From a virus (Duplodnaviria > Caudoviricetes): a DNA stretch of 54,906 bases. Location of the stretch: positions 1 to 54,906 of the IMG/VR virus record IMGVR_UViG_3300032303_000606; one strand, given 5' to 3'. The stretch's first letter is position 1, and every line of letters starts with the position of its first letter. The notes under the pieces are model-generated. The model made no database searches. It was not told the DNA's origin and saw only the letters and a list, made by a program, of their open reading frames with translations. Shown one piece after another: positions 28,293 through 51,634 of the stretch. The position numbers and the translations under genes are program-made.

Positions 28293-28313
28293 GATGCCTT
28301 CATTATACCCTAT

Positions 28314-28376
28314 AAAAAGTCCACCCCGGAGCAAAAGCTCAACAGGGTGGACGGCCACGAAGGAGGGAACGTGACA
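28314..28376 (-). ncRNA. Putative stand-alone sRNA with anti-Shine-Dalgarno loop
   Basis: TGATATAAT promoter (28382-28390); hairpin GTCACG-TTCCCTCCTT-CGTGGC; then terminator GTCCACCC...GGGTGGAC-TTTTT. Confidence 0.62.
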
Positions 28377-28395
28377 ACTAAATTATATCAGCAAT

Positions 28396-35628: not shown

Positions 35629-36099
35629 TTAGAACTGAGCGATGTCGTCCGCTAGTTCTGCGATGAGTGTCTCCACTGCTTCTGGCTTCACAAGGTTTAC
35701 CTTGTGAGCCTTGAATGTGCGTACATCGTTGACGGCTTCTCCTGTGTTCTTTGGTGTCCACTGGATTACATCAATGTTCAGCATAGCCCCGACTAGTACT
35801 TCAGGGTCGGCTGGCAGGTACACGCCACCGATGTGGCTTGCTACTGCTGTGATGAGTGCCTTGGTCTTGTACGCTGACTTGGCAGCGTCGCTGGTTGGGC
35901 AGAGTGTGGTGATGAAGCGTCCTGTCTGCTTTGGTCCAAGGATGCGGATACCAATCCATAGGCGGTTGGTTCCGTCTGGCATGTCAACGAACTTGCTCTG
36001 TTCGATGACTCCCGAGTAGTTGCCTACTGGGATGAGTGTTACTTCGGCTTCGGCTGTTGAGCCGAAGTTGAACGGTAGTGCTTTTGGCTTATTTGCCAT
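35629..36099 (-). CDS. DUF669-like single-stranded DNA-binding protein (second copy)
   Basis: AAAGGAG RBS before ATG 36099; LIP.G.Y...I..., L.G....I.V, N.VR.F pattern parallels 51010..51489; acidic tail ending in F. Confidence 0.6.
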   Translation of the reverse strand: MANKPKALPFNFGSTAEAEVTLIPVGNYSGVIEQSKFVDMPDGTNRLWIGIRILGPKQTGRFITTLCPTSDAAKSAYKTKALITAVASHIGGVYLPADPEVLVGAMLNIDVIQWTPKNTGEAVNDVRTFKAHKVNLVKPEAVETLIAELADDIAQF

Positions 36100-36119
36100 G
36101 GTGGACTCCTTTAGTCCTA

Positions 36120-43912: not shown

Positions 43913-44290
43913 ATGAAAAATACATACAGCATTGAAAGGGCTCTAGTAGCCACTACACCACGCCACCTAGTAACTGCGACAGGTTTGCCTATTACCAGTT
44001 TTAGAGTGGCACACGCGTTCACTAAGCCGTCTCACGACGGGGGTAGAGAACAGTCACACACTAACTGGTTCACTATCACATCTTTTGGTGAACTAGCCAC
44101 AGAGATGGCAGAGAAAGTCTCTAAGGGTAACCGCATAGACCTTACTGGGCTATTGTTTATTAGGGATTGGGATAATGGCGAAAGGGCTGGAACTTCTGTT
44201 GAAGTTGAAGTTACAGAATACGCAATTCGCTACCCTGAGCCACCAGCAACACGCACACACGACTGCAACTGCGTAGATTGCGTAAAGTAG
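43913..44290 (+). CDS. ssb: Single-stranded DNA-binding protein, host-like OB fold with Cys-rich tail
   Basis: LVATTPRHLVT..GLPITSFR.A, TNWFTIT.F..LA, KG.R....G.L.IRDWDNGE; AAGGAGG RBS. Confidence 0.85.
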   Translation: MKNTYSIERALVATTPRHLVTATGLPITSFRVAHAFTKPSHDGGREQSHTNWFTITSFGELATEMAEKVSKGNRIDLTGLLFIRDWDNGERAGTSVEVEVTEYAIRYPEPPATRTHDCNCVDCVK

Positions 44291-48030: not shown

Positions 48031-48307
48031 GTATGAGATTATAAACGAAGATACCGGTGAGATAGAAACTTTTAAAACTGGTATTGACATTAAGCAACTT
48101 GAAGAGTATAATCAATGGAAGATTGACCAAATGCTGAATCCTCCTACTTATTCTCCACAAGAGTATGCTAGGTTTGTGGAATCAGAAGAAGCAAAGAAAA
48201 TTATAGCTGAGGCTAAGGATTATTTATCTTTCTATAACAGGGGGACTGATTGGCCACCAGAGTTAATTGAGACTTTAGATAGGATTTTAGATGGCAGAGA
48301 AAAATAA
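48023..48307 (+). CDS. Hypothetical protein
   Basis: GAGGAG RBS before ATG 48023. Confidence 0.72.
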   Translation: MSEYEIINEDTGEIETFKTGIDIKQLEEYNQWKIDQMLNPPTYSPQEYARFVESEEAKKIIAEAKDYLSFYNRGTDWPPELIETLDRILDGREK

Positions 48308-48840: not shown

Positions 48841-49254
48841 ATGGGTAGACCAAGAGGAGCGATTAGTCACAAGGAGAATAAAGGTAGGGGTAAGGGTGGC
48901 TACACCATAAGCACATTTGATTATGCGGTTATGGGCATTAAGCCCGAAGCCATGCCTGCTCAAAGAAGACTTCACTCTGCTATGCAAGAATTAGCAGATG
49001 AGGGTTTATACGCAAAGTGTTACGGCAATTCATATTGGTATACCGATTATGATGGCCGTGGCTTTGAGGATGAAAATGGTAATGGGGCTTTAAGAAGTTT
49101 AACTGTTGATGAGTGTGAAGAGCTCTGCAATGGTTGCCCTTTGCTAAAAGTATGCTATGATTTTGCAGTAGCAAACGATGAAAAACATGGTATCTGGGGT
49201 GGCATTAACTTTGGTGCTGACTACGATGCTTTATTTGATATGGAGGATGATTAA
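48841..49254 (+). CDS. whiB: WhiB-family Fe-S transcription factor with N-terminal GRPR extension
   Basis: C...C..CP....C...A...DEKHGIWGG. Confidence 0.85.
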   Translation: MGRPRGAISHKENKGRGKGGYTISTFDYAVMGIKPEAMPAQRRLHSAMQELADEGLYAKCYGNSYWYTDYDGRGFEDENGNGALRSLTVDECEELCNGCPLLKVCYDFAVANDEKHGIWGGINFGADYDALFDMEDD

Positions 49255-50281: not shown

Positions 50282-51010
50282 ATGAGTAATTTACTACCAC
50301 TGCCTTTCGAGGCACATATCAAAAAAGCACAAGCGCTTAACACACCTAAAACTATTCTGATTTATGGTGACCCTAAGCGTGGCAAGTCTTGGCTTGCCGC
50401 ATCAGCCGCAGAGATTGCTGAACTGTCACCGGTTCTTGTAATCGATACTGAGGGTGGTTCTTCTGCTATTGCTAGAGACTGGAAAGATGTTGATGTCGTT
50501 GAGGCTGATACGCATGAAAAGTTCCAAGCAATTGTTACATCTCTAACATCACAGCCACACAAGTATAAGACAGTTATTGTCGATACACTTGGCGTATGTA
50601 TGGATAGAGCAGAAAAATTCTTTGGCGAAAAGCCTGAGAATAAGAATAACAAGTTTGGCCGTTGGGGCGACTTGAAGAACTGGACGAATGATTTTATTCG
50701 TGCATTCCATGGCGCACCATTCCTGTCAATCATTGTTACTCACGCACAGGATGAAAAGGACGAGAACACTGGGGCAGTAAAGACTATCCCAATGCTCCCA
50801 GGCTCATCTAAGGGAACGCTTCCAGCAATCCCAGACATCATTGGTTACATGACCAGTGAGAAGACCGAGGACGGTGTACAGCGTGTGCTATACTTGCAGT
50901 CCTCAGACCGATTGGTTACTGGTAACCGCTTCGGCCTTGCACCAAAAATGTATGCACCAAGCATCAAAAAAATCATCGATGAAATCAAAACCGTAGGAGG
51001 TAAAAAATAA
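50282..51010 (+). CDS. Sak4-like AAA ATPase (recombination)
   Basis: IYGDPKRGKS, IDTEGG, VIVDT, VTHA; lies between exonuclease and SSB. Confidence 0.85.
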   Translation: MSNLLPLPFEAHIKKAQALNTPKTILIYGDPKRGKSWLAASAAEIAELSPVLVIDTEGGSSAIARDWKDVDVVEADTHEKFQAIVTSLTSQPHKYKTVIVDTLGVCMDRAEKFFGEKPENKNNKFGRWGDLKNWTNDFIRAFHGAPFLSIIVTHAQDEKDENTGAVKTIPMLPGSSKGTLPAIPDIIGYMTSEKTEDGVQRVLYLQSSDRLVTGNRFGLAPKMYAPSIKKIIDEIKTVGGKK

Positions 51011-51489
51011 TGACAATTATTAACATTTCAAGTTCAGACCTAGCAACACAGTCAACTGGACAGTATGACGCACTACCTAAAGGCACATACTCAACCACAA
51101 TTTACTCAGCAGAACTTGTTGAAGTAAAGAGCGGTGAGAACGCAGGCAAGCCACAGCTAAAGCTTCAGCTAAAGGTTGCCGACGGTGAGGAATTTGCAAA
51201 CCGTCGTCTGTTTACTTATGTTCCACTTTACACAGGTAAGGCATTCTGGAAGACACAGGCTTTCTTCACAGCCCTTGGCTATGACATGAAAGCAGGTAAC
51301 TTCCAAGTTCCATCAATCGAGGAACTACTTGGCCAGTCTATTGGGGCTAAGGTTACTGTTGTCACTAACAGCGTTTCTGGTGACGACGAAAACAATGTGG
51401 GTGGGTTCACAGCCGCAACCACAGGCAACATTGATGCAGTTCTAAAGTCAATGGGCGCAACACCTGCTTCTACTGGGGATATTTGGTAG
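51010..51489 (+). CDS. DUF669-family single-stranded DNA-binding protein
   Basis: LPKG.Y...I...E......GKP.L.L...V..GE...R.LF; follows the Sak4-like gene. Confidence 0.8.
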   Translation: MTIINISSSDLATQSTGQYDALPKGTYSTTIYSAELVEVKSGENAGKPQLKLQLKVADGEEFANRRLFTYVPLYTGKAFWKTQAFFTALGYDMKAGNFQVPSIEELLGQSIGAKVTVVTNSVSGDDENNVGGFTAATTGNIDAVLKSMGATPASTGDIW

Positions 51490-51499
51490 AATAATGGGC

Positions 51500-51527
51500 A
51501 ACCCTGAGCATGGTTTAAAACTGCTCA
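51500..51527 (+). ncRNA. H-type pseudoknot motif, copy 2
   Basis: AACC-C-TGAGCA-T-GGTT-TAAAAC-TGCTCA just downstream of TGGTAGAAT extended -10 (51484-51492). Confidence 0.6.
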
Positions 51528-51530
51528 TAA

Positions 51531-51602
51531 GCCCCCACTGGTGTAGTATTGGTTTTCACTCCTTTATCTGATACAGTTCGAGTTCGATTCTCGGCCGGGG
51601 CA
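51531..51602 (+). ncRNA. tRNA-like RNA with anti-SD loop (not a canonical tRNA)
   Basis: GCCCC/GGGGC-A terminal stem; T-arm TCGAG-TTCGATT-CTCGG; central stem GTATTGG/CTGATAC with loop TTTTCACTCCTTTAT. Confidence 0.6.
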
Positions 51603-51634
51603 CTTAAAAAGGAATAGTAAATTGGAGGTATTGA

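Follow-up and report, generated by a model that had tools for sequence, protein, structure and literature searches.

A covarying tRNA-like RNA with an anti-Shine-Dalgarno-like loop between the SSB-like and primase genes of uncultured phages

What kind of RNA is encoded on the plus strand at 51531-51602, where a 72-nt element resembling a tRNA has a DUF669 gene on its 5' side and a primase gene on its 3' side? The window referred to throughout is the whole stretch of DNA that was analysed, 54,906 nt of a virus record (IMG/VR IMGVR_UViG_3300032303_000606) that is complete, with terminal repeats. An earlier note made from the sequence of this window had described the element as a tRNA-shaped RNA whose D and anticodon arms are replaced by one stem with an anti-Shine-Dalgarno (anti-SD) loop, and had proposed that a tRNA scaffold is used here for a regulator of ribosome-binding sites (RBSs).

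The tRNA-like RNA and its surroundings

The features of the locus were located as follows.

51010-51489, plus strand: DUF669 (SSB-like) gene (Pfam PF05037, 27.6 bits against a cut-off of 21), with its stop codon TAG at 51487-51489
51484-51492, plus strand: TGGTAGAAT, the '-10' box of the earlier note, overlapping the Trp and stop codons of the DUF669 gene
51493-51499, plus strand: AATGGGC motif just 5' of the pseudoknot, recurring in most relatives
51500-51527, plus strand: H-type pseudoknot, with stem S1 AACC/GGTT (51500-51503 with 51512-51515), loop L1 C51504, stem S2 TGAGCA/TGCTCA (51505-51510 with 51522-51527), loop L2 T51511 and the A-rich loop L3 TAAAAC (51516-51521)
51531-51602, plus strand: tRNA-like RNA (TLS), 72 nt from acceptor nucleotide 1 to discriminator A, matched by covariance model R1 and not called as a tRNA
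51531-51537, plus strand: 5' strand of the acceptor, GCCCCCA, pairing with 51595-51601 (CCGGGGC)
51538-51545, plus strand: single-stranded linker CTGGTGTA with a near-invariant GG at 51540-51541, the putative D-loop analogue for the T-loop elbow
51546-51574, plus strand: long arm, with the stem GTATTGG/CTGATAC (51546-51552 and 51568-51574, two wobble pairs) and the 15-nt loop TTTTCACTCCTTTAT (51553-51567)
51578-51594, plus strand: canonical T arm TCGAG-TTCGATT-CTCGG, with a 5-bp stem and the loop TTCGATT
51603-51634, plus strand: primase leader, with an SD-like box AAAGGA (51608-51613) and the working SD GGAGG (51624-51628)
51635-53839, plus strand: primase/helicase gene (DUF3987; Pfam PF13148, 59.7 bits)

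The acceptor-like stem, canonical T arm and loop-presenting stem that had been read in the 72-nt element are thus all present. In the window the acceptor-like stem consists of five Watson-Crick pairs (51531-51535 with 51597-51601) followed by two mismatches, while relatives form six to seven pairs; the discriminator A is followed by C in 54 of 71 homologues. The T arm is that of a tRNA (G53-T54-T55-C56-R57-A58...C61 with a 5-bp stem), and the window element has neither a D arm nor a 5-bp anticodon stem with a 7-nt loop. Position 3 is a C-G pair, with no G3.U70. Judging from what is known of tRNAs, the GG of the linker probably touches the T loop in an elbow-type tertiary contact. A search of the whole window with R1 gave one match (51529-51604, 73.1 bits, E 1.5e-16), the window sequence itself being among the 71 used to build the model. 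The element has every part that defines the R1 family, namely the acceptor, the GG linker, the pyrimidine-loop helix, the T arm, the position between the DUF669 and primase genes and the H-type pseudoknot upstream.

Folded as a single sequence, the window element is unremarkable in stability (z -1.74), and its minimum free energy (MFE) structure lacks the long-arm stem (-21.4 kcal/mol, against -17.6 kcal/mol for the comparative fold). The stem that is missing there is conserved and covarying in relatives; in the nearest relative, L082, it reads GTATCGG/CCGATAC.

As the earlier note had anticipated, ARAGORN gave no canonical call, reporting 0 genes in the whole window and nothing on 51450-51680 in any mode (including the tmRNA and mitochondrial modes). 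No Rfam 15 family reached its gathering score in the window, and no tRNA match was returned around the element even at E<=10. Nor are the homologues ordinary tRNAs, an outcome that the note had named as counting against its reading: they keep the non-canonical architecture, 0 of the 71 family members were called by ARAGORN in standard mode, and no TLS was called in 60 loci. Across 20 loci the Rfam tRNA model matched true tRNAs only, with no known family at the TLS positions, and true tRNAs stay below the R1 threshold.

The pseudoknot that had been placed ahead of the element was confirmed as an H-type, covarying structure. Of 67 distinct homologous stretches, 65 can be parsed as this pseudoknot, S1 and S2 each occurring in 26 different sequences; any pseudoknot at all was found in only 41 of 1340 shuffles. 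Whether a TLS or a true tRNA follows, the spacing is 2-7 nt, and in the Arthrobacter phages Amigo and Molivia the pseudoknot lies 2 nt upstream of a true tRNA-Gly. A role as a readthrough or frameshift signal was considered and dropped, as the frame after the stop codon closes again after five codons; the role is further disfavoured by the spacing of the pseudoknot, which is constant relative to the tRNA or TLS and not to the stop codon.

The promoter proposed ahead of the pseudoknot was not supported. A consensus promoter scan showed no sigma-70-like site upstream of the TLS, the closest promoter-like site on the plus strand with 12 of 12 matches being at 48084-48112, and TGGTAGAAT overlaps the Trp and stop codons that close the DUF669 reading frame, a place at which relatives retain a coding TGG-TAA/TAG. 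Neither a promoter nor a terminator was called next to the TLS, and its position between two plus-strand genes fits a tRNA-like fold inside one transcript. No RNA run with this sequence was present among the 20 sequencing runs listed.

A covarying family in one slot of the replication operon

Matches to R1 were obtained in 79 of 80 related primase loci on viral contigs; the sole miss (L076) is a contig without DNA upstream of the primase, so that all 79 loci with upstream DNA are positive. A further 25 loci were found by pattern and 18 of them match R1, 16 with Sak4 and DUF669 genes upstream and 12 with the primase downstream within the available sequence. A DUF669 gene lies upstream of the TLS in all related loci checked, and the slot is always DUF669 (SSB-like) gene, TLS, DUF3987 primase gene (79 contigs and the 16 contigs of the same gene order). 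The operon as a whole reads Sak4-like ATPase, DUF669/SSB-like gene, pseudoknot, TLS, optional true tRNAs and primase.

Sixty distinct TLS copies, down to 58% primase identity, keep one non-canonical architecture, consisting of the acceptor stem, the GG linker, the canonical T arm, the discriminator A and one helix in place of the D and anticodon arms. This replacement, the central claim of the earlier note, is borne out by covariation in all three helices. Among 71 distinct homologues the paired share of pair cells is 81.1%. Shuffles give 58.1% (0 of 500 reach the observed value) and slid controls 36-46%; the covariation score of 0.626 compares with 0.156 at most. RNAalifold, run on an unfitted alignment, recovers the same three helices, with compensatory changes in 14 of 15 pairs. 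Changes on both sides occur in all seven pairs of the acceptor helix, of which pairs 1-5 are mostly paired and the seventh is unpaired in 58 of 71 sequences. On the unfitted MAFFT alignment the long-arm helix is 72.6% paired and each of its pairs shows 22-32 double-sided changes. The T stem is 100% paired in all 71 sequences, and four of its five pairs show 30-36 such changes.

The equivalents of G53, T54, T55, C56, A58 and C61 in the T arm are invariant in the 71 sequences, and the linker GG (G12 and G13 of the first alignment row) is conserved at >=90%. The acceptor sequence differs between clades. In seven of the 71 copies ACCA is encoded after the acceptor, every copy with ACC at that place reading ACCA; this would fit maturation of a tRNA-like end. 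The TLS keeps the parts of a tRNA that are read by maturation enzymes (acceptor, GG/T-loop elbow, T arm, discriminator A and, in some lineages, CCA).

When R1 was run on the cultured relatives Amigo, Molivia, Nonagon, Yappy, CMP1, CN1A and Jojan60, no TLS was detected, the sole match being a weak one to the tRNA-Leu of Jojan60 (29 bits). In cultured relatives the counterpart of the window primase is annotated 'DNA primase' (37% identity). The window showed no DNA similarity to phage records. Among bacterial and archaeal genomes the primase scan gave no relative and 0 of 29 pattern matches was a TLS; a 25-bit R1 match was noted elsewhere in one member of this pattern-match set (L185). The carriers are uncultured freshwater phages whose hosts are probably actinobacterial, and the WhiB protein encoded by the window phage likewise suggests an actinobacterial host.

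The family appears to be undescribed so far, and phage tRNA-like RNAs that display an anti-SD loop did not turn up in a literature search. One study of this virus collection predicted 8,495 structured RNA candidates, some of them tRNA-like (PMC10690425). The main text of that study does not mention Shine-Dalgarno or primase, and its supplementary tables may list the family as an unnamed candidate (PMC10690425).

The pyrimidine loop and its candidate partners

Loops across the family are pyrimidine tracts of 11-30 nt around a CUCC(UUU) motif. As the filter for alignment A1 required a pyrimidine-rich run upstream of the T arm, motif frequencies were taken from the unfiltered census of R1 matches. 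In that census the loop proved to be conserved, against the possibility raised in the earlier note that it might not be: CUCC occurs in 55 of 60 distinct copies, compared with 4.6% of random 35-mers, and UCCUU in 43, leaving 17 without it. Five distinct copies lack CUCC (L018, L020, the L030 group, L041 and the L048 group), so the scaffold can persist without the anti-SD motif. Comparison of the copies supports the view that the loop displays a conserved anti-SD-like pyrimidine tract.

Complementarity between the loop and the leader of the adjacent primase gene was measured as the longest complementary stretch, for which both the low complexity of the partners (pyrimidine versus purine) and the phylogenetic relatedness of the loci limit the statistics. 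With 29 primase-defined clades this stretch was 7.8 nt, against 6.5 nt for shuffled pairings (p<0.0003), and with 13 clades 7.5 against 6.5 nt (median p 0.004, maximum p 0.086 over random representatives). With eight primase clades p reached up to 0.21 among random representatives, permutation tests of loop-leader pairing were not significant under coarse clustering (5-8 groups), and clustering that lumps nearly all loci into 1-6 groups gave p values of 0.11-0.76.

In 11 of 13 clades the loop is more complementary to its own leader than to a parallel decoy matched in composition (Wilcoxon p 0.0007). In 29 of 49 loci (about 5 expected) none of the called plus-strand genes offers the loop a better partner than the primase leader, and in 24 of 58 loci the longest match of the whole locus sits inside the 45-nt primase leader. 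In L056, L064 and L080 a loop with two pyrimidine blocks stands opposite a leader with two SD-like boxes. In relatives the complementarity spans 8-14 bp; loop-leader pairing is part of the joint MFE structure in 19 of 25 loci with a short gap, and the joint fold of L037 pairs loop and leader at -37 kcal/mol (z -4.17, 0 of 200 shuffles); the L037 and L006 types belong to the strongly complementary clades. In several clades, 10-12-nt complements also lie at two other RBSs, that of the Sak4-like gene and that of a gene for ~240 aa. Taken across the family, these sequence comparisons point mainly to the adjacent primase leader and other RBSs of the replication module, and not to a separate class of genes. 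In the 5' UTR of the Amigo primase gene, masking of the SD by the stretch CUCCUUUC was not supported by the MFE fold (z -0.02).

The window copy is the weakest case for loop-leader pairing. Its loop pairs with the box in its own primase leader over 6 nt only. Loop and leader together give -7.1 kcal/mol, a value that 44% of shuffles match or better; nothing was gained in their joint fold, and the duplex z was +1.35. The sites elsewhere in the window to which the earlier note had assigned the loop are the following.

36105-36113, minus strand: 9-nt loop complement TAAAGGAGT, ahead of gene 35629-36099; the longest complement located at an RBS in the genome
45316-45323, plus strand: 8-nt loop complement TAAAGGAG in the RBS of gene 45331-45606

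Gene 35629-36099 is a weak DUF669 paralogue (PF05037, 19.2 bits, below the cut-off of 21), and AAAGGAG is also found ahead of 42610 and 43577. All of these sites exist as described, at a frequency close to chance: genome sites with at least 9 nt of complementarity to the window loop number three distinct non-self sites, where our own arithmetic expects about three by chance, and the RBS complements of 6-9 nt are likewise at chance frequency. With its ACUCCUUUAU core, the window loop fits the AAAGGAG-type RBSs of small early genes and of the DUF669 paralogue better than the phage's own GGAGG-type replication genes.

Possible roles and related RNAs

The most likely reading, which we place at about an even chance, is that the TLS is a tRNA-processed anti-RBS RNA, or a cis element, that tunes the translation of replication genes. 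The scaffold and the loop envisaged by the earlier note have stood up as a conserved tRNA-like body and a conserved anti-SD-like tract, while the trans targets it named are found at about chance frequency. The TLS would be transcribed as part of the replication operon and its 5' end cut by RNase P, the pseudoknot remaining as a protective 3' end of the upstream mRNA. The other end would be trimmed as in tRNA 3' maturation, by RNase Z or exonucleases followed by CCA addition, and the product would persist as a stable RNA of ~72 nt. Its loop would then base-pair with purine-rich SD-like boxes of phage mRNAs, preferably in the primase leader and after that at other RBSs of the replication module. 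Such pairing could take place in cis before cleavage or in trans afterwards and would lower or time translation, repression being assumed as the direction of the effect.

Two groups of RNAs resemble the regulator proposed here. The C4 RNAs of phages P1 and P7 and the CI RNA of phage P4 are small phage RNAs with exposed loops complementary to RBS-overlapping sites of phage mRNAs, a feature seen across the TLS family but at chance frequency for the window loop. They are reportedly cut from a longer transcript by RNase P, whose substrate features (acceptor, T arm and GG elbow) can be read in the TLS sequence. The TLS differs from them as a tRNA mimic with a T arm and GG elbow, in its position in a replication operon and not in an immunity region, and in its probably actinobacterial host; the Rfam library, in which curated phage families are represented, gave no gathering-score match in the window and none of relevance at E<=10 near the element. 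In sRNAs of the RsaE/RoxS type, an unpaired C/U-rich loop pairs with a G-rich SD and blocks initiation, as proposed here. These are simple hairpins followed by a terminator and chromosomal in origin, whereas the TLS has a different fold and comes from a phage, and the window contains no Rfam match to them. A separate hairpin RNA at 28.3 kb in the window looks closer to the RsaE/RoxS class than the TLS does.

A more elaborate version, which we regard as unlikely, is a translational switch gated by tRNA maturation, in which processing enzymes fix the choice between the tRNA-like fold and a loop-leader helix and release a portable anti-SD RNA. During transcription the tRNA-like fold would compete with a long helix of the anti-SD loop and the primase leader; in relatives the energetic advantage of this helix reaches 18 kcal/mol. 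Only the tRNA-like conformer would be recognised by the RNase P, RNase Z and CCA enzyme of the host, whose action would make the decision irreversible. The released RNA, CCA-tailed and possibly chargeable, would rival the 16S tail for the phage's own SD boxes, and the tRNA-processing capacity of the host would set the primase-to-SSB ratio and the timing of replication. Such a switch would represent a new class of riboregulator with the tRNA maturation machinery as its effector.

Were a regulatory role to prove correct, a widespread group of uncultured freshwater phages would carry a compact RNA device joining tRNA mimicry (for processing and stability) with an anti-SD seed (for translational control), a combination of which we could not find an earlier description. 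It would amount to a natural 'tRNA scaffold' showing a regulatory loop, a kind of construct that has until now come mostly from engineering. It would also add a covariation-supported RNA family beyond Rfam 15, explain the clustering of tRNAs and tRNA-like RNAs between SSB-like and primase genes in a large actinophage lineage, and make phage control of replication-protein stoichiometry inside one operon testable.

As improbable in our estimate as the switch is a role in processing alone, in which the tRNA-like body recruits RNase P and the 3' tRNA nucleases to separate the SSB-like and primase mRNAs, the pseudoknot guards the new 3' end and the pyrimidine loop is a by-product or a minor cis mask. 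True tRNAs do occupy the same slot in cultured Amigo, Molivia, Yappy and Jojan60 and in many metagenomic relatives, and the pseudoknot keeps its short distance to either kind of RNA. The copies lacking CUCC also fit such a role, as does the SD that begins a few nt past the discriminator in L048 and L041. Precedent is offered by tRNA punctuation and by the t-elements of plant mitochondria, reportedly tRNA-like processing signals, which share with the TLS a tRNA-like fold between coding regions, where cutting by RNase P and RNase Z could set the mRNA ends. Such elements are not known to carry a conserved regulatory loop, whereas the TLS keeps an anti-SD-like tract that follows the downstream leader. 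Processing alone leaves unexplained the CUCC in a large exposed loop of nearly all copies, the tracking of the own phage's primase leader and the two-block loops facing two-box leaders. Moreover, since true tRNAs often sit downstream of the TLS (L006, L009, L014 and L071), the TLS would be superfluous for punctuation.

Less probable still is a decoy of the 16S rRNA 3' tail, by which the loop would mimic the anti-SD and soak up a host nuclease, toxin or tail-binding protein, protecting ribosomes during infection. The loop core CUCCUU does resemble the CCUCCU anti-SD, UCCUU is frequent in the family, and the host suggested by WhiB belongs to a group with toxins that act at this site; RelE1 is reportedly one that cuts at or beside the anti-SD. 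Other actinobacterial toxins on record are MazF-mt3, which cuts U/CCUU, MazF-mt6 (UU/CCU) and MazF-mt11 (C/ACCU) (PMC12274833). The host tail is essentially constant, yet the loops vary widely between clades (CUUCUUCUCCUUUC, CCUCCCUCCUCUUUC, UCCUCCCCUCCUCCC and others) and follow the leader sequences of their own phage beyond the SD core, and for this reason RNA-RNA pairing fits better than protein mimicry. The 17 copies without UCCUU also speak against a decoy.

A working but aberrant tRNA or ribosome ligand, charged and entering the ribosome as, for example, a D-armless decoder or a tmRNA-like rescue factor, is very improbable. The acceptor, the discriminator A and the seven encoded CCA ends would suit it, and the architecture is that of the tRNA-like domain of tmRNA (RF00023), in which the acceptor is stacked on the T arm, a single-stranded GG serves as D-loop analogue and one long helix follows. 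A true mini-tmRNA-like element, 81 nt long and consisting only of this domain (61.4 bits), even occupies the TLS slot of L006. The TLS itself is matched as tmRNA neither by Rfam nor by ARAGORN (option -m), has C-G and not G.U at position 3, and contains no tag frame or internal pseudoknots, its long arm ending only in the 15-nt anti-SD-like loop. With canonical tRNA (RF00005) it shares the invariant T-arm nucleotides, the 5-bp T stem, the acceptor stem, the discriminator A and the length of 72 nt, but it has no D stem, its pyrimidine loops replace a 5-bp anticodon stem with a 7-nt loop, and the acceptor has just the five Watson-Crick pairs in the window. The mitochondrial mode of ARAGORN and the Rfam tRNA model fail as well, and acceptor sequences differ from clade to clade, so that the family has no common identity set.

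A decayed tRNA pseudogene without function, suggested by the tRNA-like length, by a 5' part (CUGGUGGAA in relatives) that recalls class II tRNAs and by the weak R1 match to the tRNA-Leu of Jojan60, is scarcely credible and was rejected, because ARAGORN and Rfam call no copy a tRNA and because a pseudogene would not covary, whereas the 60-71 distinct copies show compensatory changes in all helices of a shared non-canonical architecture. The idea that the element is what remains of a prophage attachment site, namely a host tRNA's 3' half, was also dropped, the virus being complete with terminal repeats and the element having both acceptor strands and compensatory changes.

The arrangement of a pseudoknot directly 5' of a viral tRNA mimic is shared with the 3' tRNA-like structures of plant RNA viruses of the TYMV type. 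Those structures are 3'-terminal on RNA genomes, aminoacylated and equipped with anticodon-like arms, whereas the TLS is internal to the operon transcript of a DNA phage and its pseudoknot also precedes ordinary tRNAs. As this pseudoknot is common to cultured Arthrobacter phages, it is open to study in a tractable system.

A tRNA-like RNA family beside the primase gene

The virus genome is complete (54,906 bp, with terminal repeats), and a 145-nt gap between its DUF669 and DUF3987 genes houses two RNA elements, predicted from the sequence together with their linker:

51010-51489, + strand, DUF669 (SSB-like) gene
51500-51527, + strand, compact H-type pseudoknot
+ strand, 3-nt linker between the pseudoknot and the 72-nt element
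51531-51602, + strand, 72-nt tRNA-like RNA (TLS)
51635-53839, + strand, DUF3987 primase/helicase gene

In the window, the acceptor-like stem of the TLS has five Watson-Crick pairs followed by two mismatches, and its 5' strand is succeeded by the linker CTGGTGTA. A long arm (stem GTATTGG/CTGATAC) displays the loop TTTTCACTCCTTTAT, the T arm is textbook-like (TCGAG TTCGATT CTCGG), and A then C lie directly 3' of the acceptor 3' strand. ARAGORN, used in all modes, called neither tRNA nor tmRNA in the window, as the earlier note had anticipated; Rfam gave zero matches there at gathering score and no tRNA-like match around the TLS at E<=10. Folded alone, the 72-mer is of ordinary stability (z -1.74, equalled by 11 of 200 shuffles), and its minimum free energy (MFE) structure (-21.4 kcal/mol, versus -17.6 kcal/mol for the fold with the stem first proposed) lacks that stem; the single window sequence is thus insufficient to decide the fold.

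Protein searches with the primase and DUF669 returned 80 (58-93% identity) and 36 viral contigs, respectively. Across these relatives the same layout recurs, in differing letters, within the 170 nt 5' of the primase start. Seventy-one distinct TLS copies were aligned by MAFFT with no structure fitting (alignment A1), from which RNAalifold yielded an acceptor, a long arm and a T arm, with compensatory changes in 14 of 15 pairs. Over these three helices 81.1% of cells are paired, compared with 58.1% after shuffling (0 of 500 shuffles reach the true value) and only 36-46% with partners slid; the covariation score is 0.626, with controls at or below 0.156. All 71 copies pair the T stem throughout, and four of the five pairs there show 30-36 double-sided changes. 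The invariant columns of A1 are precisely the universally conserved T-arm nucleotides of tRNA, and the linker GG is at least 90% conserved; the tRNA elbow requires both. ARAGORN called a tRNA in 0 of 71 copies, and Rfam called no TLS a tRNA in 20 loci searched. Since its homologues covary and none is an ordinary tRNA, the finding that would have overturned the earlier note, the TLS is a tRNA-like RNA under selection that departs from the canonical form. The support for a family of structured RNAs is good, and in it one stem indeed replaces the D and anticodon arms.

The covariance model built from A1 (R1) finds a single copy in the window (73.1 bits) and matches 79 of the 80 primase loci, the sole miss (L076) containing no upstream DNA; true tRNAs in these loci score below its threshold. 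Scanning the whole virus collection for the motif turned up 51 stretches, 25 of them new, and 18 of these 25 match R1. Of the 18, sixteen are again preceded by Sak4-like and DUF669 genes, and 12 have the primase downstream (within the DNA available); the operon position is fixed. Second, weaker R1 matches (24-31 bits, all + strand) were seen near the main copy at L062:2729-2784, L074:2576-2631 and L159:8491-8576; in L062 and L074 the main copy is without the usual upstream pseudoknot.

Gene order and the upstream pseudoknot

A dedicated promoter had also been proposed, which was not borne out: the site scan found no promoter-like or terminator-like sites flanking the TLS. As the closest perfect promoter-like site on the + strand lies at 48084-48112, the TLS is most simply read as co-transcribed with the replication genes. 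The best cultured relatives by primase (29-39% identity), which are Arthrobacter, Curtobacterium and Clavibacter phages and one Stenotrophomonas phage, have the same gene order: exonuclease, Sak4-like ATPase, SSB/DUF669, tRNA slot, primase, DNA polymerase. In these phages the slot holds true tRNAs or is empty, and R1 found no TLS among them. Curtobacterium phage Yappy (L123:1770-1945) has an annotated tRNA-Leu(caa) of 75 nt, short for a class II tRNA, with an unannotated acceptor and T arm element upstream; R1 matches neither.

Further genes of the window bear on host and targets:

35629-36099, - strand, weak DUF669 paralogue among late genes
43913-44290, + strand, classical SSB-family gene (PF00436, 42.7 bits)
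48841-49254, + strand, WhiB-family gene in the replication region (PF02467, 38 bits)

Given the WhiB gene and the occurrence of the window sequence in freshwater metagenome runs of several studies, a freshwater actinobacterium is the probable host; species-representative bacterial genomes yielded no relative.

The pseudoknot reported 5' of the TLS was confirmed: 65 of 67 distinct upstream stretches parse as one H-type pseudoknot (S1 of 4-5 bp, S2 of 5-7 bp, A-rich third loop), despite 26 different S1 and 26 different S2 sequences, versus 41 of 1340 shuffled stretches giving any such structure. Arthrobacter phages Amigo (L117:2050-2083) and Molivia (L120:1575-1608) carry a matching pseudoknot after the SSB gene, ending 2 nt 5' of a true tRNA-Gly. 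It is thus a tRNA-linked element that is not specific to the TLS and is accessible in cultured phages. Because its spacing to the 5' end of the tRNA or TLS is constant, while that to the stop codon varies, we infer that the pseudoknot is part of the RNase P cleavage site, where it would most likely form a protective 3' end of the upstream mRNA after excision. Immediately 5' of it, at 51493-51499, is an AATGGGC(A) motif kept in most relatives, for which no pairing partner was found.

The pyrimidine loop and its candidate partners

In an unfiltered census of R1 matches (arm and loop region), the exposed loop carries an anti-Shine-Dalgarno (anti-SD)-like CUCC in 55 of 60 distinct copies (71 of 79 loci), as against 4.6% of random 35-mers from the same loci, so the loop is not unconserved; CUCCUU occurs in 43 and CUCCUUU in 38 of the 60. 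The pyrimidine tract is 11-30 nt long and, outside the CUCC core, loops diverge strongly from clade to clade. Five distinct copies are without CUCC (L018, L020, the L030 group, L041 and the L048 group).

In many clades the loop complements purine boxes of the primase leader (the stretch between TLS and primase start) over 8-12 nt, or up to 14 bp with one bulge, and this persists where true tRNAs intervene, with as much as 819 nt between loop and leader. The paired box is often an upstream SD-like box, about 20-30 nt 5' of the start, rather than the working SD, and two-block loops face two-box leaders in L056, L064 and L080. Loops match their own leaders better than those of other clades, the longest complementary stretch being 7.8 vs 6.5 nt for 29 primase-defined clades (p<0.0003) and 7.5 vs 6.5 nt for 13 clades (median p 0.004, maximum 0.086); with 5-8 groups this test was not significant. 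Antiparallel complementarity exceeds that of a parallel decoy of equal composition in 11 of 13 clades (p 0.0007). Among the called + strand genes (mean 10.6 per locus), no partner surpasses the primase leader in 29 of 49 loci (about 5 expected), and in 24 of 58 loci the longest match of the whole 4-8-kb locus falls within the 45-nt leader. Complements of 10-12 nt also occur, in several clades, at the ribosome-binding sites (RBSs) of the Sak4-like gene and of a gene of about 240 aa farther upstream. When TLS and leader were folded jointly, loop and leader paired in 19 of 25 loci with gaps of at most 40 nt, with gains of 0 to 18 kcal/mol (L037: -37 kcal/mol, z -4.17). Given the relatedness of the loci and the low complexity of both partners, these comparisons make a good, but not conclusive, case for RNA-RNA pairing across the family. 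In Amigo and Molivia alike, the long 5' UTR of the primase retains a CCGCUCCUUUCGC stretch (L117:2355-2375, L120:1858-1878); in the MFE fold of the Amigo UTR this stretch does not pair with the SD.

The window's own loop complements only AAAGGA (51608-51613) of its leader; the best duplex (-7.1 kcal/mol) is equalled by 44% of shuffles, and joint folding brings zero gain. The surrounding replication genes carry GGAGG(T)-type SDs, which the ACUCC of the loop complements over just 4-6 nt; AAAGGAG-type sites, mostly of the small leftmost + strand genes, match better. Complements at RBSs in trans, those of the earlier note among them, do exist:

9 nt, before gene 35629-36099 (the weak DUF669 paralogue)
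8 nt, before genes 45331 and 43016
7 nt, before genes 42366, 42610, 43577 and 48023

Matches of at least 9 nt number three distinct non-self sites against about three expected (seven windows, about 110 kb, both strands), so the target list is plausible but not demonstrated. The other small RNA proposed, a hairpin RNA at 28.3 kb, is real in sequence:

28312-28390, - strand, second anti-SD-type small RNA candidate (-10-like box, hairpin, terminator-like hairpin)

It comprises a -10-like TGATATAAT, a CACG/CGUG hairpin whose 10-nt loop reads UUCCCUCCUU, and a hairpin and U run that resemble a terminator. As the UUCCCUCCUU loop complements RBSs of the GGAGG type (over 7 nt at genes 42366, 42807, 43913 and 50282), it is conceivable that the two RNAs divide RBS types between them.

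Possible function and known counterparts

By analogy with tRNA biology, RNase P and the 3' pathway of tRNA maturation would excise the TLS, and CCA would be added to it; all seven ACC-encoding copies read ACCA. The loop could pair with SD-like boxes, chiefly those of the primase leader, either in cis while the transcript is uncut or in trans once the TLS has been released, and so lower or time translation, which would suit an operon needing bulk SSB-like protein and little primase. This mechanism is plausible for the family, where loop and leader are complementary, and weakly evidenced for the window copy with its weak leader pairing; the earlier note thus holds as observation, except for the promoter, and in part as interpretation. 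Alternatively, the TLS may act as processing punctuation alone, and it does resemble tRNA punctuation and t-elements in position, or as a 16S-tail decoy for anti-SD-directed nucleases, which are described in mycobacteria (PMC12274833). An aberrant working tRNA is unlikely, and a pseudogene, which would not covary, is more unlikely still.

In proposed function, P1 C4 and P4 CI antisense RNAs and C-rich-loop SD-targeting sRNAs are closest, although the TLS belongs to none of the curated families. It combines known kinds, a tRNA mimic and an anti-RBS RNA; no phage tRNA-like RNA with an anti-SD loop was described in the literature searched, and the supplements of a catalogue of candidate viral RNAs (PMC10690425) may include it unnamed. 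The closest architecture is the tRNA-like domain of tmRNA, but the TLS falls outside tmRNA by every membership test, and it lacks the cloverleaf of a canonical tRNA. One relative, L006, has an 81-nt stretch (2531-2611, + strand) that matches the Rfam tmRNA model at 61.4 bits (gathering 47) without the entire mRNA and pseudoknot middle. This mini-tmRNA is a tRNA-like domain only (acceptor with G.U at position 3, D-loop analogue, short helix and T arm), and it occupies the SSB-primase slot, flanked by true tRNAs.
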